Virus record (IMG/VR): IMGVR_UViG_2636415849_000003
Coordinates: 16,149-80,148 of that record
Strand: one strand, 5' to 3'
From: a virus
Lineage: Duplodnaviria > Caudoviricetes
DNA: 64,000 bases
Shown here: piece after piece, positions 5,505-61,897 of the stretch
Position numbering within the stretch: the first letter of the stretch is position 1
How the letters are laid out: every line of letters starts with the position of its first letter
Position numbers and translations under genes: made by a program
Notes under the pieces: model-generated
Databases searched by the model: none
Seen by the model: only the letters and a program-made list of their open reading frames with translations
What the model was told of the DNA's origin: nothing

Positions 5505-7225
5505 GCCTTGCCCGTCCGTATTGGGTTACTCAGCCAGTCGTCCATGTCGCCTTCGCCGTCTGGCGGCATCAGCACGCGGCCAACAGCCATGATCAGAGAT
5601 ACCGCGCCGTCGATCTTGTTGTCATTGCCCTGCTTGATTGGCCGCACTACATCGTCATTGCCCGGCAGGGTTTTGCCGATCACGTTCGCAACGCACCAGG
5701 TCATGATCGGGTTGCCGTCATGATGGAAGCGCCCCGAGGCGATAGCCGCCTCGATCTCCTTCATCGGGTCGCTCATGTTGGTGTAGTTCTGGGTGATCGT
5801 GATCGGCGTCAAGCCTTCGTCGTCCAATTGGTGCGCCAGGTTTGTGGCGCCATGCGGGTCGATCGGCGACGACTGCACGGGGTTCAAATGGTTGGCCTCC
5901 TTGGCCTCTTCCAGGATCTCCCGGTAATCGATCTCCGCCCCATCGGTCTGCACAAGCAGGCCCGCGTTTACCCACTTCTGGTACCGCTCGGCCATGCGTC
6001 GGTTGTCGTGATTGGCCACAGTGTCCTCAGGCACCCAAAATCGAGGCGCCACACTGTAGTAGTGCCGCTTCCCGTCGATGTCCCGCCAGAACAGGCGCGC
6101 CATGCTATTCATGTCCAACTTGCGTGCCAAGTCGAATGCCAGCACGCACGGTTGGCCCTCGAACTGCTCCAGCGTCAGGGTGACGTCCTTCAGCGCCTCC
6201 CACTGGGCGACGTTGAAAAAGCCGGCCTTGGCCGTCACCCACACGCCCAGGTGCTTGGTCTTGAACGTGTTGGTGAAGCGCGCCTGCTGAACAGCGCGGC
6301 GCTGCTGGCTTTCCAGATACTCCTGATAGACCGAAACACCGATGTTCGGATTAGCCTTGGCCAGGACGGCCGGGTCTTTCCAGTCGTCACCCTCGTCAAT
6401 GGTCCACACCCAGCCGAACAGCTCCTCATTCGGGACAGTGCCCTCGAGCATTTCCAGAACTTCGCGGCGCTTGTCATAGCACGGCCCTTCGATATTGAAG
6501 CCGGCCGTGGTGATCATGAACATCAGCGGCTGCTTACGGGCACCCATGCCGGTCAGCATGGTGGTGTAGAGCGCGTCCGAGTCATGCTCGTGATACTCAT
6601 CAACGATGGAGCAAGACGGGCTCGCGCCATCACCCGGGTTGCCGATCAACGGCTCGAATCGGCTTCCATCGGCTGGCCTGTTCAGGTTCGAGGCGTTGAC
6701 CTCGATGCCCGCAGCCTCGACCAACATCGGTGAGCGCTTGACCATCAGCCGAGCAGGTCGGAACACTTCCCACGCCTGCTTCTCCGTTGTGGCTCCCGAA
6801 TAGACCTCGGCGCCGAACTCATCGTCCAGGCAGAACATCGCCAGGCCAACGCCGGCGGCGATCACCGACTTCCCATTCTTGCGATTTACCTCCCAGTAGC
6901 TCTCTCGGAAGCGACGCATCTTGTCGCGCTTGCGCTTCCAGCCAAAGGTGCAGGCCAGGCCGAACTTCTGCCAGGGCTCCAGCGTCACCAGCTGACGCTT
7001 GAATGCCCACTCACCTTTTGTGTGCGGCAGCAACTCGATCAAGGCGATCTTTCGCTGAGCCTCCTTTGGGTCGAAGAAGTACGGCCAGTCATCGTCCTTG
7101 GCGCGATCGAGATCGTCCAGATGCCGCTGGCAGGCGAGAATCACATACCGGCACGCGGGAATCTTTCCCTTAACCACGTCCTTGGCGAACTTCAGCGCGG
7201 CGTCGACAGCAGGATACTTAGCCAT
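5501..7225 (-). CDS. Terminase large subunit
   Basis: Walker A RKNGKS, Walker B IVDEYH, ITTAG, C-terminal KIDGAVS. Confidence 0.95.
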
Positions 7226-10270: not shown

Positions 10271-10534
10271 TCAATTGCCCATCAAGCGCCGCACGGTCAC
10301 GTTCAGCGCGTCCAGTTCGCTCATCTTTTTGATTGCCCACATCCGGCGTTGGCCATGCCAGCCCATCAACGGGCCACGGTGGCAGCTCTCGCACAAGGCC
10401 ACTGCCGTGTATTGCTGGCGCTGCTCGATGTGATGCGCCTCGCTAGGGCCGGTCTGGTCGCAGACACTGCAGGGCAGTTCCTTGACGGCAGCCAGGTGAG
10501 CGCGCTCTTTTTCATTCAGCCTATTGAGCATCAC
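10271..10534 (-). CDS. HNH-like/Ref-like small nuclease
   Basis: LPCSVC..EAHHI..ALCESCH. Confidence 0.65.
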   Translation of the reverse strand: MMLNRLNEKERAHLAAVKELPCSVCDQTGPSEAHHIEQRQQYTAVALCESCHRGPLMGWHGQRRMWAIKKMSELDALNVTVRRLMGN

Positions 10535-14880: not shown

Positions 14881-14934
14881 TACACATCACGTTTAAACAA
14901 AAGTCAAACAACGCGTTTAACAACGTTTTGTTTA
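14881..14934. promoter_or_regulatory. OR operators of prophage 1 (three 15-bp sites)
   Basis: TACACatcacGTTTA 14881, CAAACaacgcGTTTA 14905, ACAACgttttGTTTA 14920; consensus TAAAC-N5-GTTTA. Confidence 0.75.
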
Positions 14935-14954
14935 GTAAACGGAAAATCAAGCCA

Positions 14955-15647
14955 ATGCACCCATCCCTCGAACGCCTCTACCAAGCCGCAATGCAAGTGC
15001 GCGGAATCAGTGGCCAATCTGCCGTTGCCCGCTTGCTCAATGAATCGCCCCAGACAGTGAAAAACTGGGAAACACGCGGCGTTTCACGGTCGGGCGCATT
15101 GACAGCCGAGGTCGCACTGGGTGTGCGTGCGGCTTGGCTACTGTCAGGCGAAGGGGAAATGATTTACGGCGGCGGTGCGCCCGTGCTGATTGAGGCCCAC
15201 GCGCCTGCAAGCCCTGACGACTTGGTGCGAATCCCTTTGCTAGCCAATTGCGGCAGCATGGGCCCGGGCAATGATGTGCTGGACACCGATTACGTGGTGG
15301 GAGGCTTATCGCTGTCGGCTCACTGGATTAACCAGCAAATCAAGCCAACAAACTTTCAAGAACTGAAGTTCATTCACGCCCATGGAGAAAGCATGTCACC
15401 CACTTTTAGCGATGGGGATGTACTACTCGTGGATGTTGGGTCCCGCGACCCAGCCAGCCATGAGGGCGTCTATGTGCTGGAAGTGCAGGGCAAGTCATAC
15501 ATCAAGCGCGTGCGTATGCGCATGGATGGCTCGCTTGAAGTCAGCTCAGACAATGTGAACATCAAGACCGTTGACGTACTCAACGGCGACCATGAAGTGC
15601 AGGTCAAAGGCCGCGTTGTCTGGGCTTGGAATGGCCGCAAGCTGTAA
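14955..15647 (+). CDS. CI-like repressor (HTH + S24 autopeptidase)
   Basis: QSAVARLLNESPQTVKNWETRG; GESMSPT..DGD..IKRV. Confidence 0.92.
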   Translation: MHPSLERLYQAAMQVRGISGQSAVARLLNESPQTVKNWETRGVSRSGALTAEVALGVRAAWLLSGEGEMIYGGGAPVLIEAHAPASPDDLVRIPLLANCGSMGPGNDVLDTDYVVGGLSLSAHWINQQIKPTNFQELKFIHAHGESMSPTFSDGDVLLVDVGSRDPASHEGVYVLEVQGKSYIKRVRMRMDGSLEVSSDNVNIKTVDVLNGDHEVQVKGRVVWAWNGRKL

Positions 15648-16841: not shown

Positions 16842-16953
16842 GCCATCCGGCGTGACCACTCGAGCAGGTACGGCAGTTCAGGAATGGGCCTGGGCTGGCG
16901 GCAGTTAGGAACGCGGCGCTTGCGTCGTGGCGACAGTGGTCACACCAGATGGC
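16842..16953. ncRNA. Candidate structured RNA A (copy 1)
   Basis: 19-bp terminal inverted repeat; homologous element at 57122-57249. Confidence 0.5.
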
Positions 16954-17032
16954 TCTACCCCTTTGGTGTAAGACGAGCTCCTATTGATCGCCCGAAAAGC
17001 ATCATGCAGAATTCGACGCCATCTACCTGTTA

Positions 17033-17148
17033 CGCCGGGTCTGGGGTTAACTCCTCCCTCCCTTTCTGACCTCTTCCCCAGGCATGGCCCGAAAGGGTCA
17101 CCGGCTCTTTATTCAAGCCCGCAGCAACCACTCGCGGGCTTTTTCTTT
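17033..17148 (+). ncRNA. Candidate anti-SD sRNA B (copy 1)
   Basis: Three-way junction with CTCCTCCCTCC loop, then terminator; homologue at 57257-57366. Confidence 0.55.
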
Positions 17149-17177
17149 GCCCAAACCACCCTCCACAGGAGAAACCA

Positions 17178-18229: not shown

Positions 18230-18293
18230 CTGCAGCGCCCACCTCCACCCAATCCGCCACCGCACCGGTGGCTTTCTCTTTTCTGGAGTCCTG

Positions 18294-19229
18294 ATGTTCA
18301 AGAACATGATCATTTACCGCTATGCCGAAAGCTGGCAAAGCGATCTGCAGGCGCTGGAAGATGCGCTGCAGAAGACAGTCTTCGAGGAATGCGGCGCCAC
18401 GCAGGAGCGCTCCATGGGCTGGGTGCCGCCGCGCGGCGAGCCCCATGGCCCGATGGTCGAATCCGTGGCAGGTCAATGGGTGATGCGTTTCATGACCGAG
18501 GCCAAGGTGCTGCCGGCCAGCGTGCTCAATCGCAGGGTCAACGAGAAGGCCGATCACATCGAAAAGACCGATGGCCGCAAGCCCGGCAAGAAGGAAAAGC
18601 GTGACCTCAAGGACGAGGCCAAGCTGGATCTGCTGCCCATGGCCTTCACCAAGCAAGGCAGCATGTGGGTCTGGATCGACCCGCAGGCGCGCACCCTGGT
18701 GCTTGATACCAGTGCCCAGAGCCGCGCCGACGAGGTGGTAACGCTGCTGGTCGAGGGCCTAACCGGCTTTGCCCTGGCCCTGCTGGACACACAAACCAGC
18801 CCGCAGGCCGCCATGGCGCATTGGCTGATGACCCAGGAACCGCCCGCCGGATTCAGCGCCGACCGCGAAACGGAGCTGAAAGCATGCGACGAGTCCAAGG
18901 CCGTGGTGCGCTACGCCCGCCACCCGCTGGACATTGATGAGGTACGCAAGCACATCGAGCAAGGAAAGCTGCCCACCAAGCTGGCCATGACCTGGGACGA
19001 CCGGGTGAGTTTCGTGCTGACCGAAGGCTTGCAGATCAAGAACATCGCGCTGCTGGATGCGGTCATGGACGGCAACAGCAAGGATGACAGCGGCTTTGAT
19101 ACCGATGTAGCCATTGCCACCGGCGAGCTGTCGCGCCTGATTCCGGATCTGATCGAAGCGCTGGGCGGCGAAGGCCGAACCGCGCTGGGCGACCTGCCCG
19201 CCTCGCTGGCTACCAGCGCCAGCAACTGA
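18294..19229 (+). CDS. rdgC: Recombination-associated protein RdgC
   Basis: MFKNMIIYR..SMGWVPPRG..KVLPASV..KLAMTWDDRVSFVLTE. Confidence 0.93.
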   Translation: MFKNMIIYRYAESWQSDLQALEDALQKTVFEECGATQERSMGWVPPRGEPHGPMVESVAGQWVMRFMTEAKVLPASVLNRRVNEKADHIEKTDGRKPGKKEKRDLKDEAKLDLLPMAFTKQGSMWVWIDPQARTLVLDTSAQSRADEVVTLLVEGLTGFALALLDTQTSPQAAMAHWLMTQEPPAGFSADRETELKACDESKAVVRYARHPLDIDEVRKHIEQGKLPTKLAMTWDDRVSFVLTEGLQIKNIALLDAVMDGNSKDDSGFDTDVAIATGELSRLIPDLIEALGGEGRTALGDLPASLATSASN

Positions 19230-19328
19230 GCACCTATTCATAGATTTGCATGAATCGGGCCGCGCACCCACATCAATGAATCGTCTGCCCGCCACTGCGT
19301 GGGCTTTTTTCGTCCAAAGGAGAACCCC

Positions 19329-19916
19329 GTGCAGATTCACACACAGAACGTCATCATCCTTCCACCGGCCGCAACTGCTGATGCCATGGCAAGCATGGAG
19401 CGACTCATGCAAAGCATTGGCCGCGCCGAAGCCCCTGCGGTCGCAGCTCAGCCAGGCTGCAAGCCCCAGATTGGCGACTACTGGCCCAACCAAGGCGGCT
19501 TCTACGCCGGCGACATGCGCAGCGATGACGGAACGATCTATGGACTGATCGTTGCCGATTGCGGCGACTCCAAAGACGCCGGCTCTGCCAAGTGGGGCCC
19601 GGATGGCGAACGAGACCTGTCCCACTGGGATGGCCTGGACAACACTCGCCGCCTGGGCAACGAATGCCCTGCCGCAAAGCTGGCGACCGCGCACTCAGCT
19701 GACGAGCACAAGGATTTCTACCTCCCAGCCCGCCGCGAACTGCAGCTGGCAGCCGCCAATGTGCCCCACCTCTTTGGTGATGAGAGCTGGTACTGGAGTA
19801 GCACTCACTACGGCCAGAGCACCGCCTGGGCCGTCGATTTTGAGTACGGAAACACGGACATCTTCAACCGGAACGACGAGTTCCGAGTTCGTCCCGTCCG
19901 CAGATTCATCTACTGA
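19329..19916 (+). CDS. DGR target protein 1 (DUF1566/C-type-lectin-like)
   Basis: GGFYAG, DFYLPARRELQL, WYWSST, AWAVDF..FRVRPVRRF; contains VR1; GTG start after AAGGAG. Confidence 0.88.
   Translation: MQIHTQNVIILPPAATADAMASMERLMQSIGRAEAPAVAAQPGCKPQIGDYWPNQGGFYAGDMRSDDGTIYGLIVADCGDSKDAGSAKWGPDGERDLSHWDGLDNTRRLGNECPAAKLATAHSADEHKDFYLPARRELQLAAANVPHLFGDESWYWSSTHYGQSTAWAVDFEYGNTDIFNRNDEFRVRPVRRFIY
19825..19904 (+). repeat. DGR variable repeat VR1
   Basis: 80-bp ungapped match to TR with 6 mismatches, all at TR adenines. Confidence 0.95.
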
Positions 19917-19958
19917 TCCCTTCAACCCTTCCTTCTCAAACCAACCACGGAGCCATCA

Positions 19959-20360
19959 ATGAGCACCACACCCGCAATCAACCAGCCCTGGCCCGAGCAG
20001 GGCGGAATCTTCATCGGCAGCCGCCTCATCGACGGCCTGGTACACCACGTCGTCATCCCTGGAGGGATTGAGTTCGACCATGCCGACATTCCATTCAGCC
20101 GAGTGGAGCAGGTCGTGGCCGAAGGCGATGAGCTGAACGGCTTCAGCGACTGGCGCGCCCCGGATAAGGAAGATCTGATGCTGGCCTATATCAATAGCCG
20201 CGAGCTCTTCGATACCGGCGACTGGTACTGGTCACGAACTCCGGATGGCGAGCACTGGGCCTGGGCCGTCGATTGTGAGTGCGGGCACACGGACGACAAC
20301 TGCCGGCGCAGCGAGTTCCGAGTTCGTCCCGTCCGCAGCTTTCCCGCTTCAGCGATTTAA
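19959..20360 (+). CDS. DGR target protein 2 (DUF1566/C-type-lectin-like)
   Basis: QGGIFIG, DWRAP..DL, WYWSRT, AWAVD..FRVRPVRSF; contains VR2. Confidence 0.88.
   Translation: MSTTPAINQPWPEQGGIFIGSRLIDGLVHHVVIPGGIEFDHADIPFSRVEQVVAEGDELNGFSDWRAPDKEDLMLAYINSRELFDTGDWYWSRTPDGEHWAWAVDCECGHTDDNCRRSEFRVRPVRSFPASAI
20260..20339 (+). repeat. DGR variable repeat VR2
   Basis: 80-bp ungapped match to TR with 13 mismatches, 12 at TR adenines and one T>G. Confidence 0.95.
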
Positions 20361-20366
20361 CACTTT

Positions 20367-20381
20367 GCGGGCGTAGCCCGC
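20367..20381 (+). other. DGR target-recognition hairpin candidate
   Basis: GCGGGC-GTA-GCCCGC, a GC stem with a 3-nt loop just downstream of VR2. Confidence 0.65.
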
Positions 20382-20388
20382 CTTTGGC

Positions 20389-20850
20389 ATGGCGCTCCAC
20401 ACTGACACCGAGATCTACAAATCCACATACGACTTGAGCAAGCTGGTCACCCAACTGGTGGCCAATATGCCTAGGAACTTCAAGGCTGACTTTGGCGCCG
20501 AGTTGCGGCGCCGGTGCATGACGCTGGTCATGCGCACCTACGAAGCCAACACGAATGCGGACAAGGCCGCGATCCTGCAGCGCATGCGCATGGAGATTGA
20601 GACCGTCAATCTCTCGCTGCGCCTGGCTGTGGATCTGCGCCTGATTTCGGTCAATCAGTACAGCCGCGCCATCGCCATCACTGACAGCATCGGCAAGCAA
20701 GCCACCGGCTGGCAGAAGTACTCGGAACGCGCGCAAGCTGCCGGCTTGTCAAGGCAGACCGGCCACAGCGCCTTGGAATCTGGTCGAGCCGCTGGGCCAC
20801 AAGCCCACCGAAAGGCGCATCAGGAATATCAGCAGAAGCATCTGCAGTGA
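20389..20850 (+). CDS. avd: Accessory variability determinant (four-helix bundle)
   Basis: IYKSTYDL..MPRNFK..LRLAVDLRLIS..IGKQATGW; lies between targets and TR. Confidence 0.88.
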   Translation: MALHTDTEIYKSTYDLSKLVTQLVANMPRNFKADFGAELRRRCMTLVMRTYEANTNADKAAILQRMRMEIETVNLSLRLAVDLRLISVNQYSRAIAITDSIGKQATGWQKYSERAQAAGLSRQTGHSALESGRAAGPQAHRKAHQEYQQKHLQ

Positions 20851-20906
20851 TTCCGCGCAGTTTGCCTGCTGAATGCTCGGCAGGCCGACGTGATCAGCTC
20901 GGCACA

Positions 20907-20986
20907 CCTGGGCCGTCGATTTTGAGAACGGAAACACGAACAACAACAACCGGAACAACGAGTTCCGAGTTCGTCCCGTCCGCAGA
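20907..20986 (+). ncRNA. DGR template repeat (TR)
   Basis: Copy of the VRs with 8 AAC triplets in the VR reading frame; between avd and RT. Confidence 0.95.
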
Positions 20987-21003
20987 CTCCACCGAGACAC
21001 ACT

Positions 21004-22104
21004 ATGGATACTGGCTATTCGCTCGAGAAGCTGGTGCAGGCTTACTTTGACTGCCGCCGGCACAAACGCACTACGGCCAGCGCACTGCTTTTCGAGCAGG
21101 CTCTGGAGCACAACCTCATGCAACTGCATGGAGAGCTGCAGGATGGCAGCTACCGGCCCGGTCCATCCATCTGCTTTGCGATCAGCCGACCACGGCCGCG
21201 CGAAGTATGGGCCGCCCAATTTAGAGACCGAATCGTGCACCATCTGCTCTACAACCAGATTGCCGATCGGTTCCACCGCCGCTTTATCGCGGATTCGTGC
21301 GCAGGCATCCCGGGGCGCGGCACGCTGTATGCAGCCCAGCGCCTGGAGGCCAAGGTGCGCAGCCAAACCCAGAACTGGTCAGTGCCCGGGCATTACCTGA
21401 AGATCGATCTGGCCAATTTCTTTGTTTCCATCGACAAGCGGGTGGTCTGGCCCCTGTTGGTCCAGCAGATCCCGGAGCGCTGGTGGCGGGGCTTAGCCAA
21501 GGTCATTCTTTTCAACGACCCGCGCATTGACTTTGAGCAGCGCGGCAGCGTTGAGACGCTGGCAGCAGTACCCGCTCACAAGCGCCTTGCCAATGCGAAG
21601 CCCTACTGCGGGCTACCCATCGGCAACCTGAGCAGCCAGTTCTTTGCCAATGTACTGCTCAATGAGCTGGACCAGCATGCCAAGCACAGCATCAAGGCCA
21701 GGCACTACACCCGCTATGTCGATGACATGGTGCTGCTGCACGAGTCACCCCAGTGGCTCAATGGGGCTCTGGACAGCATCAATGCATTCCTTCCCAGCCT
21801 GGGTCTGCAGCTGAATCCACGCAAGACCGTGCTGCAGCCGATCAGCCGCGGCATCGATTACGTGGGCCAGACGATCCACCACTGGCGGCGAACAACACGC
21901 CCACGAACGCTACAGCAAGCGCTCGCACGCATCGAGGTCATGCCAGCCGATGAGGTCTACGCCAGCGGCAACAGCTACCTCGGTCTGGTGCGCCAGTCCA
22001 GCGCCAGCCACAACGAACAGGCGCTCATCTGCAGAGCGCTACTTAGACGCGGGCATGCCATTGAGGGATTGCACCTCAGTAAGGCATTTCGCAAAAACCA
22101 CTGA
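21004..22104 (+). CDS. DGR reverse transcriptase
   Basis: FRDRIVHH, LKIDLANFF, GLPIGNLSSQFFAN, RYVDD; 366 aa with no maturase/endonuclease extension. Confidence 0.96.
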   Translation: MDTGYSLEKLVQAYFDCRRHKRTTASALLFEQALEHNLMQLHGELQDGSYRPGPSICFAISRPRPREVWAAQFRDRIVHHLLYNQIADRFHRRFIADSCAGIPGRGTLYAAQRLEAKVRSQTQNWSVPGHYLKIDLANFFVSIDKRVVWPLLVQQIPERWWRGLAKVILFNDPRIDFEQRGSVETLAAVPAHKRLANAKPYCGLPIGNLSSQFFANVLLNELDQHAKHSIKARHYTRYVDDMVLLHESPQWLNGALDSINAFLPSLGLQLNPRKTVLQPISRGIDYVGQTIHHWRRTTRPRTLQQALARIEVMPADEVYASGNSYLGLVRQSSASHNEQALICRALLRRGHAIEGLHLSKAFRKNH

Positions 22105-22150
22105 CCCCAGCCCGCAGCCGCGGGCTTTTCTCATTCTGGGAGCCACCTAT

Positions 22151-23389
22151 ATGCAAGACAAGAACTTCATCAAGCTGACCGACCAAGACGCAGCCCTGCT
22201 CGAGCAAGGAGCATCCATGCTTGAAGGCCTGGAGAACGATGAGCGCAATCGCGGGAATTGCAGCACAGCCGAAGGCGCAGGATGCAGCGCCCATGCAGTC
22301 CGCCGCCTGGCCTCAGCCCTTCTGGCGCATGAGCGAGAAATTGACCAGTGCCTGCACCAGATTCAGGAGCCAGCCGCAGCAGAACAATCCGCATGGCATG
22401 CAGGCCTGGACGAAGGCCGGGCACAGGCAGCGCCTGCAGCCGTGGCTGTGCCTGATGGCTGGAAGCTGGTGCCGACTGAGCCTACGCCCCAGATGTGTCA
22501 CGTCGGACGCTACGGAGGGGACAAGGACGCCCCAGCGTATGGGGAAAAACCAGTTGAAGGAGAGACCGCTTGGCCATTTGTTGCAGATCACACTGCAAAG
22601 CAGATTTACTGCGCCATGCTCGCTGCTGCTCCAGCGCTTGCCGCCACCCCGGCATGTGACACGCCCAACTACTGCCGCAGCGTGCAGCGTTGCACCGCCA
22701 TGGATGGGCAGCGGGCAGCAGCCGCGCCAGTGGTGCTGCCAGAGCCTATGGCGTGGATGGCGACTCCTGTGATGCAGTCAGGTCGCGGTACAACGACGGT
22801 GTTTTGCTCCGACAAGCGGATGGCGGACCAGTGGGACTACGGCGGACACCCGGAGTACGGCCGCATGCTGGTGACACGGCTCTTCACAGAGCAGCAGCTG
22901 CGCGCCCTGCTGGCTACTGCACCACTGCAGCCAGTGGAAGTCCCCACGAAGGATCAAGCGACATGGTGCAGCTACATCGCCGGGATGATTGGGTGCTATC
23001 TCAATGAGCCAGACGACAGCCCCCGCGTCAAAGCCATTGCAGGAATCATTGAGCGCCGCCTGTGGGCACTGCCGTCCGCAGCTACTGCGACCGGACTTCC
23101 CGCGCACGCGGTTGCAGACGAGGTGCACTGTGTCTGCGGTGCGTCTTGGCTGCGCCACGGCGTCAACAACTACGAGATGACCGACACGCCACGGAAGGCG
23201 CAGGCTGACGCGCGGGATGCGCTGATACCCGCCAAGCCGGTTCACCCCAAAGGGATGACCAGCATCAATGCGCGGCTTTCGTTCAACATGGGCTGGATGG
23301 CATGCGAGCGCCATCACGGCATCCGCGCAGAAGACGTTGAGCAGGCCGTAGCCACCGACGCCGCTATCGCGGCAGCAAAGGGGGAGTGA
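22151..23389 (+). CDS. Mosaic multi-module early protein (Eaa/Ead-like)
   Basis: VPDGWKLVPTEPT..IYCAMLAAAP module; Ala-rich linkers. Confidence 0.7.
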   Translation: MQDKNFIKLTDQDAALLEQGASMLEGLENDERNRGNCSTAEGAGCSAHAVRRLASALLAHEREIDQCLHQIQEPAAAEQSAWHAGLDEGRAQAAPAAVAVPDGWKLVPTEPTPQMCHVGRYGGDKDAPAYGEKPVEGETAWPFVADHTAKQIYCAMLAAAPALAATPACDTPNYCRSVQRCTAMDGQRAAAAPVVLPEPMAWMATPVMQSGRGTTTVFCSDKRMADQWDYGGHPEYGRMLVTRLFTEQQLRALLATAPLQPVEVPTKDQATWCSYIAGMIGCYLNEPDDSPRVKAIAGIIERRLWALPSAATATGLPAHAVADEVHCVCGASWLRHGVNNYEMTDTPRKAQADARDALIPAKPVHPKGMTSINARLSFNMGWMACERHHGIRAEDVEQAVATDAAIAAAKGE

Positions 23390-24250: not shown

Positions 24251-24449
24251 ATTCCTGTTGCCACAAGAAATTAAGCGAATGGCGTCAGCTGGAAAGCTGG
24301 ACCAGCAAGAAGCGTTTTTGAAGAAAGAGGGAATCCCTCATAAACGCCTGGGTAGGCGTATTCTTGTCTCTCGCGCTCATGCCCGGGCGTGGCTGACTGG
24401 AGTGGTTTTCACGCCTTCGCGCGGGATTAACTTAGGAGCTGTCAGATGA
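24234..24449 (+). CDS. Putative excisionase (DUF4224-like)
   Basis: FLLPQEIKRM..QEAFLKKEGIPH; directly upstream of int. Confidence 0.75.
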   Translation: MDQTGEFLLPQEIKRMASAGKLDQQEAFLKKEGIPHKRLGRRILVSRAHARAWLTGVVFTPSRGINLGAVR

Positions 24450-25477
24450 CTGGAGCCTATCCACGACTGCGCACCAGGACGCGCCGCCGTAAAAGCGGCA
24501 AGGTCGTGGTGTATTACTTCTATGACGCATCAACAGAAGGAAACGGGGAGATTCCTCTTGGCACCGACTTCGATAAAGCAATCGCCCAATGGAAAGAGAT
24601 TACTGAGAACGGCACTCACAGCGCGCGCATAACTGGCACGCTCGAGGAGGCTTTCTCAGGCTGGGAATCGAAAGTCTTGCCAACATACAAGAGCGAAGAG
24701 ACGAAAAAGGGCTACGCCAAGAATCTCAGGATGATGCGCCCAGTCTTTGCCGAGGCCACTTGGGACCAGGTGAGCCTGCCTGTAATCAAGGGCTACCTGA
24801 CGAAGCGCACGGCGAAGACCCAGGGCAATCGGGAGATGGCCTTACTCTCGGTCATCTGGAACTGGGCGCGCGGCGAAGGCCTCACCTCCCTACCCTGGCC
24901 AGCGGCCGGGATGGAGCGCAGCAAGTGGAAGAACAAAGAAAAGGCGCGAAAGATCAAGGTTCGAGACGATGTGTTTGCGGCTATCTATGCCGAGGCGGCC
25001 CAGCACATCAAGGATTGCATGGACCTCGGATCCGCCACGGGCATGCGCCTGACTGACTGCATCACGGTCCTGATGCCGCGCGGGAACCTGCTGACACTGG
25101 AGGCCAGCAAGACCGGTAAGGAGGCCGAGTGGGACTTGAACCTGTCCGCAGTTCTGCCCGACCTGGTGCGCAGGCGCAAGGCTCTTGGAGCCGATCATCT
25201 GATGCTGCTTTCCACTGCAGACGGGCAGCCGGTGTCGCCCCAGGCGCTTCGCTATGGATGGGACAAAGCCCGGAGCACGGCCGCAGAGAAGGCCATCGAG
25301 CGCGGCGACGATGAGCTGGCCGAAGCGATCAAACAGCTCTACCTGCGGGACATGCGAAAGCGCGCTGCACAGAAAGCGGGCAGCCTGGAAGAGGCATCCA
25401 AGCTGCTGCAGCACAGCGACGAACGCCTGACCGAGCGCCATTACGGCGGCGTCCGGAGGCTGAAGCCAGTGGGCTAA
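24446..25477 (+). CDS. int: Tyrosine integrase
   Basis: TGMRLTD, RDMRKRAA, LLQHS..TERHY; adjacent to att. Confidence 0.92.
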   Translation: MTGAYPRLRTRTRRRKSGKVVVYYFYDASTEGNGEIPLGTDFDKAIAQWKEITENGTHSARITGTLEEAFSGWESKVLPTYKSEETKKGYAKNLRMMRPVFAEATWDQVSLPVIKGYLTKRTAKTQGNREMALLSVIWNWARGEGLTSLPWPAAGMERSKWKNKEKARKIKVRDDVFAAIYAEAAQHIKDCMDLGSATGMRLTDCITVLMPRGNLLTLEASKTGKEAEWDLNLSAVLPDLVRRRKALGADHLMLLSTADGQPVSPQALRYGWDKARSTAAEKAIERGDDELAEAIKQLYLRDMRKRAAQKAGSLEEASKLLQHSDERLTERHYGGVRRLKPVG

Positions 25478-25805: not shown

Positions 25806-25821
25806 CTGTATTTATGTACAG
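25806..25821. promoter_or_regulatory. LexA (SOS) box
   Basis: CTGTATTTATGTACAG (CTG-N10-CAG) at the umuD start. Confidence 0.88.
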
Positions 25822-26254
25822 TCATCGACTCTTGAGCGGCATGCCCGTCCAACTCACTGCCTCCCCAGTTGCTTTGCCGCTGGCAGATTGCAGCGTGCGT
25901 GCAGGCTTTCCCTCACCAGCCGAGGACTTCTCAGGCAAGCGGCTAGATATTGCCGAGCTGCTGGTAGAGCATCCACAGGCCACATTCCTGCTGCGCGTGG
26001 CAGGGCCATCCATGCGCGAGTACGGCATTGATGATGGCGACATCATCGTGGTCGACCGGGCACTGCGCGCACGCCACGGCAGCATCGTCGTGGCCGTCCT
26101 TGACAATGACTTCACCGTGAAGGTCCTGCACAACGCTGGTGGCTGCTTCAAGCTCAGGGCCGGCAACCCCACCTATCCCGACATCGTCCCCAAAGAGAAC
26201 CAAGAGCTGGAAATCTGGGGCGTGGTCAAGTCCTGCATCAAACGCTTTGCATGA
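25814..26254 (+). CDS. umuD: DNA polymerase V subunit UmuD
   Basis: VRAGFPSPAED, GPSM, FTVK. Confidence 0.92.
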   Translation: MYSHRLLSGMPVQLTASPVALPLADCSVRAGFPSPAEDFSGKRLDIAELLVEHPQATFLLRVAGPSMREYGIDDGDIIVVDRALRARHGSIVVAVLDNDFTVKVLHNAGGCFKLRAGNPTYPDIVPKENQELEIWGVVKSCIKRFA

Positions 26255-26260
26255 GCATGT

Positions 26261-27559
26261 ATGTTCGCGCTCATCGACGGCAACAACTTCTATGTCAGCT
26301 GCGAGCGGGCTTTCAGGCCTGCCCTTGAGGGCATCCCTGTCGTCGTCCTGAGCAATAACGACGGCTGCGCCATCTCACGCTCCGACGAGGCCAAGGCCCT
26401 GGGCGTGAAGATGGGGCAGCCTTTTTTTCAGTTGCGCGACCTGGTCGAGCACAAGGGGCTTGTCTGCCTCTCACCAAACTTTGAGCTGTACGGCGACATG
26501 AGCGACCGCATGATGTCGCTGGCTGCCGGCCTGGGCCCCGTCCAGGAAATCTACAGCATCGATGAGTCATTCATTGGGGATCTGGACGGCGTGCGGGATC
26601 TCACGCGCCGCGCCTTTGCCATCCGCACACGCATCCTGAAATGGACAGGCATCCCTACATGCGTGGGCCTGGCTCCCACTAAGACCTTGGCCAAGCTCTG
26701 CAACCATGTCGCCAAGGACTCGGAGCGCAAGCCTGGCAGCTATCCTGCTGAGCTGCAGCGGGTCTGCAACTGGGCAGAGCTGTCCGAACAGCAACGCACC
26801 GACATTCTCGGCCGCACCGCCGCCGGCGAGGTCTGGGGCGTGGGCCGGCGCATCTCTGCCCAACTGGCTGAGCAAGGCGTGCTGACTGCGCTTGACCTGG
26901 CCAGGCTGCCCGCCCATGCCGCGCGCGATGGCTGGAGCGTGGTGCTGGAGCGCACCGTGCGCGAGCTGCAGGGCGTGAGCTGCATGACCTTGGAGCTTGC
27001 CCCAGCCGCCAAGAAGCAGATTGCATGCACCCGCAGCTTTGGACACCCCATCACCACCTTGCCGCCCCTTATCGAGGCCGTGAGCGAATTTGCAACCAGA
27101 GCCGCCGAGAAGCTGCGCGCCAGTGGGTTGCGCGCCGGCGCCCTGCATGTTTTCGTGCACACGTCGCCATTCAGGCCCGGTCGTAGGTTCTACGAAACGG
27201 CCGTAATTCAACTCCAGCCGCCCTCATCAGACACCAAGGCTCTAGTCAACGCGGCCGTGCGCGGCCTGCGATCGATCTACCAGCCTGGCTACCAACTATC
27301 CAAGGCCGGCGTCATGCTGCAAGACCTGTGCCCTGCAGAAGTACAGCAAGGCGATCTGCTTTTTCAGGAACCCAGCCGCGACCAAAGCAAGCTGATGGAA
27401 GCCATGGACCGCGTCAATGCGCGCTTTGGCAAGGGCACCGTGCATGTGGCGAGCACCGGAGTACCTGAGCAGGATGAAAGCGGCTGGCGCATGCGCCAAG
27501 AGCGCCGCACGCCGCGCTACACCACGAAACTGGATGACATTCCCATTGCCAGGGCCTAA
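26261..27559 (+). CDS. umuC: DNA polymerase V subunit UmuC (Y family)
   Basis: [23 protein letters not shown]-terminal [14 protein letters not shown]. Confidence 0.95.
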
Positions 27560-27567
27560 GAAAGATG

Positions 27568-27655
27568 ACTCCACATGCAGTGTTACAAAAAACAACAAAC
27601 ACTAAATGTAGTGCCAAGTGGCACATTTGTACCCCCTAAACACTAGATGTAGTGT
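27568..27655. promoter_or_regulatory. Three NrdR-box-like palindromes
   Basis: ACTCCACATGCAGTGT 27568, ACACTAAATGTAGTGC 27599, ACACTAGATGTAGTGT 27640; starts 31 and 41 bp apart. Confidence 0.65.
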
Positions 27656-27745
27656 CCATCCCATGAAAACACCGATCACAGAAGCGTCAGGAAGTCAAGA
27701 AGAAGTATTAAAAATAAGTTTACTGAGCTAAACTAGCCCCAACAC

Positions 27746-27812
27746 ACCCGCCACACGTCCTAGCTTCGGCTAGGGTCTGCCTTAAAAAGCAGCGTGCAAA
27801 AGGCGGGTTTTT
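27746..27812 (+). ncRNA. abiF-type leader RNA (candidate antitoxin)
   Basis: ACCCGCC/GGCGGGT closing stem, CACG/CGTG, CCTAGC-TTCG-GCTAGG and CTGC/GCAG hairpins, T tract; directly upstream of the Abi gene. Confidence 0.7.
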
Positions 27813-27832
27813 CATGCCCGAAAGTTATTAGT

Positions 27833-28720
27833 GTGTCCCTAACCACTTTCACTAAATCGGCGTCAAATCCCAGCACGCTGCTTACCAAGCTTGAAGGCCA
27901 AGGCCTTCAAGTTGCGGATCGGTCGACGGCGCTCAACTATCTCCAATATGTTGGTGGTTACCGACTCAAGGGATACTGGCACCACCTCATCGACAAAGCA
28001 ACCAATCAATTCCCACAAGGCTACAACTTTACCGATATAGCTAATCGTTGTGAGTTTGATCGAGAACTACGAGCTGCGACGATTGAAGCCATAGACAGGC
28101 TAGAGGTTGCAATTCGATCCAGCATTGCTAACTATTTGAGTCAGAAGCATGGCCCACATTGGTTCTTAAAGCCATCCGCATTCAAACCCACAAAAGCATG
28201 GGGTCTAGGGCAACTTCTTCAGAAAATTGAGAGTGAAGTAGGCCGCGGAAAGAACAATTTCGTGAAGCACTACTTCAGCAAGCACGATGACCCGTACCTT
28301 CCTCCAAGCTGGTCTATTAGTGAGTGCGTGAGCTTTGGCCTATGGTCCAGAACCTACGAAATCCTGCGCGATACCAATGACAAAAAGGCAATCGCCATGA
28401 AGTTCAACATTGATCAACCCAATGTGTTCGCGTCTTGGATTCACGCGATAACAGTTCTTCGAAATGTTGTAGCACATCACGGCCAACTTCTCGGCAATAC
28501 TCAAAATGTCAGCCCTTGCGAGTACAAGAGACTGGGGATCATTTTCAAGGACAACAAGCAGTTCTTTGCCCTAGCCACTGTTATTCAGTACATGCTCACC
28601 CAGACATCACTGCCCAATCGCTGGAAAGCAGATCTGAAAGCCATATTCGACAAATATCCAACGGTCAACATCTTGGAGGTTGGGTTTCCACAGAAGTGGG
28701 AATCCCAGCCTGGCTGGTGA
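27833..28720 (+). CDS. AbiD/AbiF (Abi_2) family HEPN protein
   Basis: VGGYRLKGY, FDRELR..IDRLEVAIR, PPSWSISECVSFG, RNVVAHH (Rx4H); visibly lower GC; start inferred. Confidence 0.9.
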   Translation: MSLTTFTKSASNPSTLLTKLEGQGLQVADRSTALNYLQYVGGYRLKGYWHHLIDKATNQFPQGYNFTDIANRCEFDRELRAATIEAIDRLEVAIRSSIANYLSQKHGPHWFLKPSAFKPTKAWGLGQLLQKIESEVGRGKNNFVKHYFSKHDDPYLPPSWSISECVSFGLWSRTYEILRDTNDKKAIAMKFNIDQPNVFASWIHAITVLRNVVAHHGQLLGNTQNVSPCEYKRLGIIFKDNKQFFALATVIQYMLTQTSLPNRWKADLKAIFDKYPTVNILEVGFPQKWESQPGW

Positions 28721-57121: not shown

Positions 57122-57249
57122 AACCATCTAGCGTGACCACTCAAGCAGGTCTGCCGCCGCAGAAATGGGTCTGAGGCGTCAGCTATCAGGAACTTCAGCG
57201 CAGGGGTCGCACTCTACGTTGATGGCGACAGTGGTCACACCAGATGGTT
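57122..57249. ncRNA. Candidate structured RNA A (copy 2)
   Basis: 20-bp terminal inverted repeat; 25 bp identical to copy 1. Confidence 0.5.
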
Positions 57250-57256
57250 TCAGTTT

Positions 57257-57366
57257 CGCCGGGCCTGGGAGCTCTCCTCCCTCCCTCCTAACCACTTCCC
57301 CAGGCATGCCCACCAGGGCACCGGCACTTTTCATAAGCCCGCCAGCAACCGCTGAGCGGGCTTTTT
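57257..57366 (+). ncRNA. Candidate anti-SD sRNA B (copy 2)
   Basis: Same architecture as 17033-17148. Confidence 0.55.
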
Positions 57367-57377
57367 CATGGAGCCAA

Positions 57378-59207: not shown

Positions 59208-59430
59208 ATCCTTCAAGTCCACCTGGGCCGGTGGCGAGGTGCTGATCCCCAAGGCCCAGGTGGAGGCCGAAGCCCGCGAGGCCTTCGACGCAGGCCGCAC
59301 GGCCAACGAGGCCTGCCCCTACCCCTTCCACACCGACGCCGCCCTGCACTGGCTGGCGACCTTCAACCTCTGCATGCCCCTGTCGTCCAACAGGCAGCCA
59401 CTACCCAATGACCACCTCCCACATTCCTAA
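59200..59430 (+). CDS. Hypothetical early protein
   Basis: ACPYPF..HW motif; coupled to neighbours. Confidence 0.55.
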   Translation: MAESFKSTWAGGEVLIPKAQVEAEAREAFDAGRTANEACPYPFHTDAALHWLATFNLCMPLSSNRQPLPNDHLPHS

Positions 59431-59641
59431 AGGCGGCTTGTGCACCACCTGCGCCAATGGTTCCAAAGCCTGCGCGGATCTGCAGTTTGCGAGCATGCCG
59501 CCAATCCAACGCTACCCCGACGGCATCACCGCCGTGAAGTGCACCGCCCACAGCGCGCCAGCTGCGGCACCGCCGCTCTGCATCAGCTGCGGCGCACGAA
59601 ACCACCCGCTGCCCGATGGCAGCCTGCCCTGCGGTCACTAA
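59408..59641 (+). CDS. Cys-rich hypothetical protein
   Basis: PKGGLCTTC..C..VKC..CISCG..LPCGH. Confidence 0.6.
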   Translation: MTTSHIPKGGLCTTCANGSKACADLQFASMPPIQRYPDGITAVKCTAHSAPAAAPPLCISCGARNHPLPDGSLPCGH

Positions 59642-59740
59642 TCGCACAAACCATTCATAGATAACGATGGACTGAGCCAATCGCTCATATCAATGAATAT
59701 CCGCCCGCCACCGCGCGGGCTTTGTCATTTCTGGAGCCCC

Positions 59741-61327
59741 ATGCTTACCCCTCAATTTGTGCTGGCACTGTCTGCCAAGCTGGTAATTGACTTGTTTGCC
59801 GGTGGCGGCGGTGCCAGCACAGGCATTGAGCAAGCCATCGGCCGCCCGGTTGACATTGCGATCAACCATGACGCCGACGCCATCGGCATGCATGAAGCCA
59901 ACCACCCCCAGACGCGCCACTACCGCGCCGACATCTGGGAGGTCTGCCCTCGCCAAGCCACGGGCGGGCAGCCGGTGGGGCTGCTGCATGCTTCCCCGGA
60001 CTGCACCCACCACAGCCAGGCGCTGGGCGGCCAGCCGCGCAGCAAAGAAATTCGCTCTCTGGCTTGGGTCGTGCCGCGCTGGGGCGGCATTGCAAAGCCT
60101 GATGTCATCACCCTGGAGAACGTGGAGCAGATGCTGCTCTGGTGCAGGCTGATTGCCAAGCGCTGCCCCGATACTGGCCGCGTCGTCACGCTGGACAAGA
60201 TCAAGGACGCCAAGGGCAAGACCACATACCGCGTTGCAGACCCTGGCGAGCGCGTGCCGCGCCATAACCAGTATCTGGTGCCAGACAAGAAGCAACTGGG
60301 CAAGACCTGGAATCGCTTTGTCCAGACGCTGCGCAATCAGGGCTATGTGGTGCAGTGGCGCGTGCTCTGCAATGCTGATGTCGGCTGCAAGAGCACCAGA
60401 ACCCGGCTCTATATGATTGCCCGCCGCGACGGGCTCCCCATCGTCTGGCCCGAGAAGACCCACGCCAAGAAGCCAGTAGGCAATCTCAAGCCGCACAAAT
60501 GGTCAGCCGAGTGCATCGACTGGAGCATTCCCGGCACCAGCATATTCGGACGTAAGAAGGATCTGGCCGAGGCCACGATGCGCCGCATTGCCCATGGCAT
60601 GCAGAAGTATGTGATTGGCAGCAAAGATCCATTCATTGCCCCAGCTGCAGCACACGCCGCCTTCATCACCAAGTTCGCAACGGCTTCCGCCTACCTTGTG
60701 CAGGCAGGCCATGGACAAGGCACAGGCGCCTCAAAACGCAGGAGCCACGGCGTCAACGACATCAGGGGCCCCATCGGCACCATTACCGCCAGCGGTGGCG
60801 GGCAGAGCCTTGCCACGGCCTTCATGGTGCAGGCCAACGGCGGATTCAACACCACGCCGGCAAGGGATCTGCGCGAGGGCATGTCCACGGTCACGACCAG
60901 CGGCAGCCAGCAGCAGCTGATTACGGCCAAGCTGGAGCAGCAGAGCCTGAGCCCAGAGCATGAAGCCGGCGCCCTGCGCTGTGCTGCATTCCTCATGCGG
61001 TACCACGGCAGCGGCGGCCAATGGTCTGATCTGCGCGAGCCGGTAACAACCATCACCACACGCGACCGCCTGGCACTGGTGACGGTCTGGCTCAAGGGTG
61101 AGCCCTGGGTGATCGTAGACATCACGCTGCGCATGCTGGTGCCGCGCGAGCTCTACAACGCTCAGGACTTCCCGCCAAACTACATCATCGACCGCACGGC
61201 CGCAGGCAAGCCCCTGACGAAAACGGCACAGGTGCGAATGGCCGGCAACAGTGTCAGCCCCCTACCCATGCGGTTGATCGTCGCCGCGAACTACAGCGAA
61301 GTAGGCCAGCTCCGAAAGGCAGCCTGA
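59741..61327 (+). CDS. DNA (cytosine-5) methyltransferase, orphan
   Basis: DLFAGGGG, SPDC, ENV, RTRL, GNSV motifs. Confidence 0.93.
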   Translation: MLTPQFVLALSAKLVIDLFAGGGGASTGIEQAIGRPVDIAINHDADAIGMHEANHPQTRHYRADIWEVCPRQATGGQPVGLLHASPDCTHHSQALGGQPRSKEIRSLAWVVPRWGGIAKPDVITLENVEQMLLWCRLIAKRCPDTGRVVTLDKIKDAKGKTTYRVADPGERVPRHNQYLVPDKKQLGKTWNRFVQTLRNQGYVVQWRVLCNADVGCKSTRTRLYMIARRDGLPIVWPEKTHAKKPVGNLKPHKWSAECIDWSIPGTSIFGRKKDLAEATMRRIAHGMQKYVIGSKDPFIAPAAAHAAFITKFATASAYLVQAGHGQGTGASKRRSHGVNDIRGPIGTITASGGGQSLATAFMVQANGGFNTTPARDLREGMSTVTTSGSQQQLITAKLEQQSLSPEHEAGALRCAAFLMRYHGSGGQWSDLREPVTTITTRDRLALVTVWLKGEPWVIVDITLRMLVPRELYNAQDFPPNYIIDRTAAGKPLTKTAQVRMAGNSVSPLPMRLIVAANYSEVGQLRKAA

Positions 61328-61384
61328 CCATCACCACCCGGCCCGCAAAAGCGGGCTTTTCTCATTCTTGTACGGAGCACCATC

Positions 61385-61897
61385 ATGAGCAGCACCACCA
61401 AGCTACTGCCCTGCCCGTTCTGCAGCAACGCAGACATATCCATCAAAAACGAGAACCCCAATGACAATAGCGGGGGATATTTCATTGAATGCCCTGGCTG
61501 TGGCGCCAGCACAAGCCTGCGATTCGCATGCGGCGACGACCCCACCCATCTGCTGGCCGAGCAATGGAACCGCCGAACAGCCTCGCACTGCCTGCACCAG
61601 ATTCAGGAGCCAGCGGCCAAACTGGCCGCGCAGCCAGAAGATATCCGCGACAAGGTGACTCTGGCGCTTGGACTTTCCTTGTCACCCAAGGGAGCACCGA
61701 ACTTCGCATGGTCTTACCTACTGGATGCAATCCGCGAACTGGTGAAGTGCGAAGAGGAATTGACCTTGCTCAAGGCTGGAATGGAAAAATCAAAGACAGC
61801 TCCCACAGACGCGCGGGATACAGAGTCTGACTATCAGCGCGGTTACCGCCATGGCTACAACCGACGGGATGCAGAAGTGCAAGGGGCTCTGCTGTGA
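61385..61897 (+). CDS. Lar-like restriction alleviation domain mosaic protein
   Basis: LLPCPFCS..IECPGCGA..WNRR. Confidence 0.78.
   Translation: MSSTTKLLPCPFCSNADISIKNENPNDNSGGYFIECPGCGASTSLRFACGDDPTHLLAEQWNRRTASHCLHQIQEPAAKLAAQPEDIRDKVTLALGLSLSPKGAPNFAWSYLLDAIRELVKCEEELTLLKAGMEKSKTAPTDARDTESDYQRGYRHGYNRRDAEVQGALL

Follow-up and report, generated by a model that had tools for sequence, protein, structure and literature searches.

A linker-bounded slot in the early-left operon of Comamonas-type lambdoid prophages, with a diversity-generating retroelement as a probable exchangeable cargo

Genes and linkers of the two slots

We analysed a window of 64,000 nt (positions 16,149 to 80,148) of the IMG/VR virus record IMGVR_UViG_2636415849_000003, an 80-kb provirus record without host DNA. 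The window contains two neighbouring lambdoid prophages of a type known from Comamonas and Acidovorax, termed prophage 1 (win1) and prophage 2 (win2), and in each of them a pair of short intergenic sequences, here called the left linker (L) and the right linker (R), encloses a gene slot. The slot of prophage 1 holds a diversity-generating retroelement (DGR) and that of prophage 2 an orphan C5 cytosine DNA methyltransferase. Both slots are within a + strand operon, with the structural genes on the opposite strand. The operon of prophage 1 begins near a cI-like repressor gene (14928-15647), and in both prophages the early operon ends with a + strand integrase gene (24446-25477, assigned to phrog_1, and 62966-64000, reaching the end of the window), the two integrases being 46% identical and members of one blastp cluster. 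Given a + strand operon that ends at the integrase, with structural genes opposite, we place the slot in the early-left operon, after the recombination genes.

As a cargo the DGR is self-contained and measures 2.8 kb (19312-22103), comprising two small targets of a putative C-type-lectin-like kind, Avd, the RT-15 RNA with the template repeat (TR), and a reverse transcriptase (RT), all on the + strand. Target 1 (19329-19916; 195 aa) contains variable repeat (VR) 1 at 19825-19907 and matches phrog_4245 and, just under the curated cut-off, the Pfam family Lcl_C (E 4e-8); target 2 (19959-20360; 133 aa) contains VR2 at 20260-20342 and scores 37.2 bits with Lcl_C, over the cut-off. Both VRs form the 3' end of their target open reading frames. 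Avd (20389-20850) was recognized by the Pfam model bAvd (E 2e-13; 51 bits against a cut-off of 40), and the structured RNA RT-15 (20729-20909; Rfam RF03018, 142 bits against a gathering score of 82, E 2e-34) extends from the 3' end of avd to the start of TR. TR itself (20907-20989; repeat family D1) has 24 adenines and is directly followed by the RT gene (21004-22104; 366 aa, Pfam RVT_1). Six of the seven differences between VR1 and TR fall at TR adenines, as do 12 of the 15 between VR2 and TR, the remainder being at the edges. VR residues differ between win1 and a relative that is ~89% identical to it (L014; retrieved loci are cited by such numbers) and the flanks agree, and the contigs of a metagenome (contigs, not raw reads) vary most over the target genes. 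With its DGR-type RT, TR/VR adenine pattern, Avd, and RT-15, the DGR is genuine. Mutagenic copying of TR into VR is the general mechanism of DGRs, of which the adenine pattern is what is observed here; errors at adenines would arise when TR RNA is reverse-transcribed, and each target gene would have its 3'-terminal VR replaced by the cDNA.

The order in prophage 2 is C5 methyltransferase, right linker, Lar-like protein. The methyltransferase (59741-61327, +; 528 aa) belongs to Pfam DNA_methylase (E 3e-22; cluster c2), and the Lar-like restriction-alleviation protein (61385-61897, +; 170 aa) matches Pfam Lar_restr_allev (E 6e-9) and phrog_599.

L is ~80 nt long and is built from two inverted-repeat arms of 10 nt, separated by exactly 26 nt, together with an inner stem and a predicted intrinsic terminator hairpin. 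Copy 1 (19236-19310, +; arms at 19236-19245 and 19272-19281) and copy 2 (59653-59725, +) score 90 and 86 bits, respectively, with a covariance model of the element, R1. The arm motif ATTCATAGAT-N26-ATCAATGAAT occurs at 19236-19281 and 59653-59698 with no third match in the window, and none of 100 shuffles contained any match. No more than 5 nt past each motif is a terminator-like hairpin (GCCCGCCAC..GGGC) with a T run, at 19287-19304 and 59703-59720.

The first copy of R (22104-22163, +) comprises a predicted terminator hairpin (22109-22126), an 18-mer (GCGGGCTTTTCTCATTCT) that is the 3' half and tail of this hairpin, a ribosome-binding site (RBS), and the first codons, MQDK, of the following gene. 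The second copy is at 61337-61368 (+). The 18-mer is found at 22120-22137 and 61351-61368 and nowhere else in the window even with up to three mismatches; two matches were reached in one of 100 shuffles. A wider repeat of 32 nt (22106-22137 vs 61337-61368) is 88% identical. The genes downstream of R have 30 of 32 nt (94%) in common at 22346-22377 and 61586-61617, where an exact run of 26 nt encodes CLHQIQEPA. An initial annotation had claimed that the DGR sits between the same two linkers as the C5 methyltransferase of prophage 2, that a Lar-like gene adjoins the latter, and that the genes after both slots share this exact run; our searches bear these observations out at the coordinates given, with linker matches far beyond chance.

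The genes preceding the slot differ between the prophages, being rdgC in prophage 1 (18294-19229, +; Pfam RdgC, E 3e-106) and, in prophage 2, a gene for an Rv2179c-like exonuclease and small genes, among them a 77-aa gene (59408-59641, +; cluster c56) that also precedes L in two relatives (L030 and L055). Nucleotide similarity between the two early regions (blastn) is limited to the linkers, the joint in the downstream genes, and a segment at 16928-17145 vs 57223-57367.

Cargo of the slot in related prophages

Related prophages were retrieved by their linkers. The exact left motif identified 12 related loci among 26 pattern matches in IMG/VR, six related Comamonas loci among nine matches in genomes, and ten related loci among 23 matches in metagenomes. 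The right 18-mer was found in 48 IMG/VR loci. By their flanks, 33 of these were assigned to this phage family and 11 to a different phage group, four being unrelated. The distance from L to R varies from 443 to 2990 nt in the seven loci that have both exact motifs. For the census, 36 L-bearing loci were dereplicated to 28, and genes were predicted with our own codon-usage gene caller and clustered with blastp. The listing of what follows L in these 28 loci describes a variable slot. The first cargo is an unknown 132-aa protein (c6) in nine loci, the C5 methyltransferase c2 in eight, and a DGR in four; an N6/N4 methyltransferase, an SspD-like protein, and a small gene (c239) together with an SPFH protein and a methyltransferase occur once each. 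Two slots of 328 and 368 nt contain almost nothing, and L is followed by host-like genes at a prophage remnant in the last two. A DNA methyltransferase is held in 12 of the 28 slots. The gene upstream of L is rdgC in at least 17 of the 28, c56 or c63/c64 in three each, c88 in two, and c78 in one, and is not clear in two.

The initial annotation had regarded the DGR as an exchangeable cassette, and the comparison supports this view, as the linker pair encloses at least eight different cargoes and homology breaks at the linkers. In comparisons with 20 relatives, the similarity of win1 spans rdgC and L and is lost at 19309-19311; it returns at 22104, where the RT stop codon has its last base, and continues to ~22163. 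Beyond this point only islands of 25-40 nt recur, mostly inside the gene that follows the slot. The four-gene DGR unit also recurs at other positions and in other phages: DGRs with RTs 58-93% identical follow a cI-like gene, with no L, in four loci (L081, L083, L084, and L086). RT identity across the IMG/VR loci is 29-93%.

The 412-aa gene after the slot of prophage 1 (22151-23389, +) has no Pfam family and is a mosaic, with the CLHQIQEPA joint at 22346-22377 and conserved islands at 22345-83, 22714-50, 22896-923, 23081-112, 23196-221, and 23354-89; one more (23616-50) is just beyond the gene end. In the relatives, the gene after R is likewise a patchwork with a conserved start (MQDK...), a variable N-domain that in some is a Lar zinc ribbon, and the CLHQIQEP joint, beyond which variable modules are spaced by conserved islands of 25-40 nt encoding Ala/Pro-rich linkers. 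This gene, too, seems to undergo recombination at short stretches of conserved sequence.

Three relatives are informative as to how cargo is added. Both L030 and L055 resemble prophage 2 in their backbone and have additional cassettes ahead of the methyltransferase gene, after L: the insert of L030, a small gene and an SPFH gene, has a terminator, RBS, and ATG (40 nt) on both sides, and that of L055, a three-target DGR and a helix-turn-helix (HTH) gene, has a terminator on both sides. In L083, direct repeats of ~35 nt flank the DGR. The duplicated linkers and the breakpoints fit homologous recombination between short terminator-RBS linkers, which is the step we infer from comparing these loci. 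The early-left operon, which starts with the immunity region and passes through recombination genes to reach xis and int, contains a hypervariable accessory slot bounded by the conserved intergenic modules L and R, and cargo would be exchanged, added, or lost by homologous recombination at such linkers with co-resident or co-infecting relatives.

The slot accumulates as well as exchanges cargo and does not hold one cargo at a time, as L055 carries DGR, HTH gene, and methyltransferase in tandem. Nor is the DGR tied to the slot, as other phages have it elsewhere in the early operon. The linkers are members of a wider terminator-RBS set, the terminator-RBS part of L also preceding other genes without the inverted repeat. 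They are not strictly left or right: in L043, L046, and L049 the 18-mer comes before the C5 methyltransferase gene, and in L052 it lies on both sides of the gene for a small methyltransferase. A slot with one cargo and fixed left and right linkers does not agree with these loci.

Intrinsic terminators resemble one another through GC-rich stems and T runs, and the linkers might be no more than that, the common slot being a coincidence. Hairpins of the form GCCCGC..GCGGGC-TTTT are indeed found after many genes of both early operons (at 18256, 19287, 22109, 24201, 56812, 57092, 57710, 59703, 61340, 62028, and 62707), as are repeat families D6, D7, and D10; low-scoring R1 matches are terminator-only and lie at many gene boundaries; and in one locus (L071) the 3' half of the L terminator is within two mismatches of the R 18-mer. 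Identity between copies nevertheless extends past the stems, to the arms at their 26-nt spacing in L and, in R, to CCACCAACACCCCA ahead of the stem and CTCATTCT, the RBS, and the MQDK codons beyond it. With R1 we found 28 full-length L elements (at least 69 bits), one each in 26 L-bearing loci and two in the window, that is, a single copy per prophage rather than copies at many unrelated boundaries, and none in nine other loci searched with the model (four hipBA loci and five DGR-bearing phages). The extended identity, the single-copy L, and the breakpoints at the linkers in the 20 comparisons contradict a coincidence of generic terminators, which we consider highly improbable.

The methyltransferases in or beside the slot represent six families, two of C5, two of N6_N4, and two other phage families (phrog_1008 and phrog_954), in clusters c2, c127, c124, c194, c341, and c25. 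Other genes of counter-defence type in or beside it encode 3'-phosphoadenosine 5'-phosphosulfate (PAPS) reductase, the SspD-like protein, and Lar-type domains, and the region also contains GGDEF, SPFH, lipocalin, HNH, and MgtC genes and an ArsR-type HTH gene. The island is mixed, though rich in anti-restriction genes. Since the identifiable cargo consists mostly of DNA-modification and restriction-alleviation genes, the region may be regarded as largely, not solely, an anti-restriction and accessory island that would be expressed with the early genes. The designation counter-defence hotspot in the initial annotation is apt for the six methyltransferase families and the PAPS reductase, SspD-like, and Lar genes, but not for the unknown protein that is the commonest first cargo or for the accessory genes known as morons that are also present.

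Overall, a linker-bounded slot in a region rich in anti-restriction genes, with the DGR as one exchangeable cargo, is the best explanation of these data, and we consider it probable. Several points weigh against it. Recombination is deduced from comparing loci rather than seen to happen, and a cassette that carried its own terminator and was inserted illegitimately would leave duplicated linkers as well. The terminators are pattern matches only; between 54000 and 64000 the 13 terminator-like sites are no excess over shuffles (11.8), although the 23 between 14000 and 26000 are (11.9). Our gene caller, based on codon usage, may miss or miscall small genes. The commonest cargo, c6, has no match in Pfam, PHROGs, or PADLOC and no usable match in the Atlas, so that only the minority of cargoes with an annotation speaks for an enrichment in anti-restriction genes. 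As the linker motifs were also what retrieved the loci, the census is biased toward linkers and mute on how often the slot occurs without them; eight rdgC-bearing loci fetched by R have no full-length L (L034, L043-L046, L052, L053, and L063). Lastly, the slot model does not account for the inverted repeat in L.

Some further observations concern the surroundings of the slot. Two loci (L013 at ~10400-10500 and L041 at ~6594-6700) contain degenerate 5' remnants of a C5 methyltransferase gene after a terminator-RBS linker, beside an HNH endonuclease gene on the opposite strand, which look like a replaced or eroded methyltransferase cassette. In three metagenome loci (L090, L096, and L104) the prophage sequence stops at or just after L or R and is succeeded by genes of host type (M20 peptidase, FAD monooxygenase); the linkers seem to be where remnants of these prophages break off. 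The third segment of similarity between the early regions (16920-17160, +, vs 57223-57367) is kept in many relatives at up to 98% identity. A terminator-like hairpin forms its end, and its fold is somewhat better than those of shuffles (z = -2.4). In an operon with so many predicted terminators, this segment is a candidate site of antitermination (nut/put-like). Genes of umuD-like (S24 peptidase), umuC-like (IMS), and Abi_2 (abortive infection) type occupy 25814-28720 (+), separating the prophage 1 integrase from the lysis/tail end of prophage 2.

None of the sequencing runs covered half of the stretch, and matches to it were contigs only. RNA-library contigs of one study (two runs, X18 and X19), with ~6-10% differing letters per piece, match the region 19223-22104 and cover rdgC, L, both targets, and TR-RT, not avd; the same contigs include an rdgC-to-R joint, and loose ends match the 3' end of a methyltransferase gene. 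As both DGR-bearing and methyltransferase-type forms occur among them, the strain behind these contigs, one cultured organism, seems to carry two prophages of the family with both cargoes, like the window. The contigs speak neither for nor against transcription.

The left linker as a possible binding site

The arms of L are, letter for letter, invariant or nearly so, and the 26-nt interior varies. A structured RNA is only weakly indicated and was set aside: the outer stem has no compensatory changes, the inner stem has them at two pairs (four cells), and the single-sequence RNA fold is unremarkable (z = -0.22). Neither linker matched an Rfam family. A miniature inverted-repeat transposable element or other transposon as the origin of the 46-nt inverted repeat was likewise rejected, as no target-site duplication was seen by eye. 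L contains a mini-ORF of nine codons (MNRAxxPHQ*), a candidate attenuator leader, which is intact in 21 of the 28 copies and lost in both win2-type copies and others. A scan of the + strand for promoter-like sites found none at either linker; by eye the only resemblance is TTGCAT, a -35-like hexamer, with a poor -10.

The arms recur at the same 26-nt spacing outside these phages, where they lie on either side of the promoter region of an XRE-HTH/HipA (hipBA-like) operon, immediately ahead of its genes. Such operons were found in Comamonas nitrativorans, Acidovorax bellezanensis, and two metagenome contigs, on Comamonadaceae chromosomes or conjugative elements (arm sites at L073 7892-7937, L080 4887-4932, and L092 7042-7087, and in L093). 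The four operons are orthologous and count as one further context for the arms. L073 also has TTGCAT after the left arm. In the XRE-HTH/HipA loci the called start codon of the HTH gene overlaps the end of an arm, which suggests a leaderless transcript.

A protein-binding site appears to be the most economical reading of L. It would account for constant arms around a varying interior, for an outer stem without compensatory changes, and for the recurrence of arms and spacing at the promoter region of the XRE-HTH/HipA operon. A stronger version holds that L is the site of a DNA-binding protein, an operator or a recombination site, which controls the exchange or expression of the cargo, and not passive homology. 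This we consider unlikely. With tblastn, neither the window nor any of the fetched prophage loci yielded a homologue of the XRE-HTH protein; L has no detectable σ70-like promoter; and the insertions in L030, L055, and L083 are bracketed by duplicated terminator-RBS linkers, not by L. A variant of this idea, in which the cargoes are site-specific cassettes like those of integrons, is not supported. The core of attC sites has the consensus GTTRRRY, which the arms ATTCATAGAT and ATCAATGAAT do not resemble by eye, and the only recombinases seen are phage integrases (phrog_1), the IntI signature itself not having been searched.

The retroelement in other phages and the role of its targets

DGRs of the same clade are present in cultured phages, six of which we examined from 14 matching records: Burkholderia phages Magia and vB_E192a, Shewanella phage vB_Sb_QDWS, and Pseudomonas phages Cruim01, Haboob, and phPA-G. 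Their RTs are 58-60% identical (aa) to the RT of the window and both targets are homologous. Comamonas, Burkholderia, Pseudomonas, and Shewanella are the host genera whose temperate phages carry the clade. RT-15 is annotated at the same place in Cruim01, and this RNA appears to mark the clade. The cassette is on the strand of the repressor, recombination, or integrase genes in all six and falls in their early-left operon. An annotated methyltransferase follows the RT gene at a distance of one to six genes in four of the six, being the next gene in vB_E192a and vB_Sb_QDWS, in the latter followed by a 'host nuclease inhibitor protein', the fourth in Cruim01, and the sixth in Haboob; Magia and phPA-G have no annotated methyltransferase in the stretch around the DGR. 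Among the loci retrieved here, L084 has a PAPS reductase gene two genes after RT. As the DGR-methyltransferase neighbourhood recurs across genera, the idea of a counter-defence role is worth testing.

The targets match the C-terminal part only of the phrog_4245 profile (583 positions) and, as a sequence profile, the C-terminal domain of Lcl (Lcl_C = DUF1566; PDB 8q4e, E 2e-9), an extracellular adhesin domain homologous to their variable domain. No tail-fibre or tail-attachment domain was found in these 133-195-aa proteins with Pfam and PHROGs, and no signal peptide was seen by eye. We read the targets as putative small soluble binding proteins that would be made with the early genes. The announcement of phage Magia merely describes them as 'relatively short reading frames' (PMC7883833), and in the DGR literature we found no paper that gives a function to such short early-operon targets; the supplements of surveys may list the clade.

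One proposal is that the targets are virion-associated receptor-binding or decoration proteins, as is Mtd of BPP-1, and are merely encoded far from the tail genes. C-type-lectin-like DGR proteins of phages are typically determinants of tropism (PMC5758913, PMC8144416), and a hotspot between tail genes and integrase carries DGRs with targets read as receptor binders (bioRxiv 10.1101/2024.10.15.618418). Longer relatives also exist, to judge from the length of the phrog_4245 profile and from a 628-aa target with an Ig-like stretch in one locus (L087). Against this, both the window and all six cultured phages have these genes in the early-left operon, whose strand is not that of the structural genes, and the proteins have no detected domain for attachment to a tail. 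We regard a virion-associated role as a fair possibility short of an even chance.

Alternatively, the targets could be evolvable inhibitors or binders of host defence proteins or of other intracellular host proteins, made early beside methyltransferases and Lar. The operon location just described would suit such a role, as would the methyltransferase genes directly after RT in vB_E192a and vB_Sb_QDWS, with an annotated host nuclease inhibitor in the latter, and further downstream in Cruim01 and Haboob, the tandem in L055, and the PAPS reductase near RT in L084. The targets are short, with neither signal peptide nor tail-fibre domain, and our searches of the DGR literature turned up no paper that assigns them a function, the Magia paper only mentioning them. 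The neighbourhood is however the sole basis for this proposal, and the region also holds GGDEF, lipocalin, SPFH, and MgtC genes; in Magia and phPA-G no methyltransferase is annotated in the vicinity of the DGR; the homology of the variable domain is with an extracellular adhesin domain; and most viral DGR targets with a known role to date are proteins of the tail (PMC8144416). We consider this role unlikely. The adhesin-type domain and the tail-associated precedent argue for caution on the idea of defence inhibitors. In its most specific form, in which this DGR clade (two short Lcl_C-type targets, Avd, RT-15/TR, and RT) resides beside orphan methyltransferases instead of tail genes and is a hypermutating counter-defence cassette that moves between linker-bounded slots and diversifies small cytoplasmic binders to neutralise variable targets in host defence or host takeover, the proposal is speculative and slightly less likely still. 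The remaining probability goes to other roles.

The closest known mechanism to the proposed cargo exchange is the shuffling of promoter-early stem-loop modules (PeSLs) in T4-like phages, taken together with the boundary-sequence model of lambdoid phages. PeSLs of T4-type phages are, as here, short conserved intergenic modules comprising a stop codon, stem-loop terminator (here a predicted one), Shine-Dalgarno sequence, and start codon; they cluster in hyperplastic regions, where the genes are variable and non-essential, the modules are where insertions, deletions, and replacements have their ends, and module repeats flank cassettes (PMC2839356). Here, too, a short intergenic motif is common to boundaries with differing flanking genes, and insertions are bounded by motif copies (L030, L055, and L083). 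The present modules differ in belonging to temperate lambdoid prophages of Comamonadaceae rather than T4-like lytic phages, in having no strong σ70 promoter detectable in a + strand scan, and in that the left module is single-copy with a fixed inverted repeat. The lambdoid model invokes homologous recombination at short conserved sequences between modules, and morons are accessory genes with their own terminator between essential operon genes (PMC3029335), both as found here; the boundary sequences described here differ in being explicit, 30-80 nt long, and common to dozens of prophages.

The DGR as cargo of a phage hotspot is already described, there beside tail genes, in the Toutatisvirus of Faecalibacterium (bioRxiv 10.1101/2024.10.15.618418). 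In that hotspot, as here, a DGR is one of many alternative cargoes beside the integrase, along with defence-related and accessory genes. It follows the tail genes, and its targets (DUF6273, Ig-like) are read as receptor-binding or head-decoration proteins, whereas the DGR described here belongs to the early operon, which it joins downstream of the recombination genes, and its two targets are short and of Lcl_C type. Magia and its relatives have the same cassette (two short targets, Avd, (RT-15), TR, and RT) at the same early-left location between regulator/recombination genes and integrase; they have hosts of other genera and other genes beside the cassette, and neither L nor R was seen in them. 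Anti-defence islands in the leading region of plasmids are comparable in that orphan methyltransferases and restriction-alleviation genes cluster in the region expressed first on entry (bioRxiv 10.1101/2023.02.15.528439). The present island differs in being a phage early-left operon with morons mixed in, and beyond Lar-type domains no known defence inhibitor was identified in it.

The slot is a clean natural example of phage mosaicism via explicit conserved linkers, in which a whole DGR behaves as a single interchangeable cargo among anti-restriction genes. It also draws attention to DGRs that have gone unstudied as a group, found in cultured phages of several genera, in which short targets are encoded together with early genes. 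If it is true that these targets bind intracellular host proteins, the biology of DGRs would extend from receptor recognition to counter-defence.

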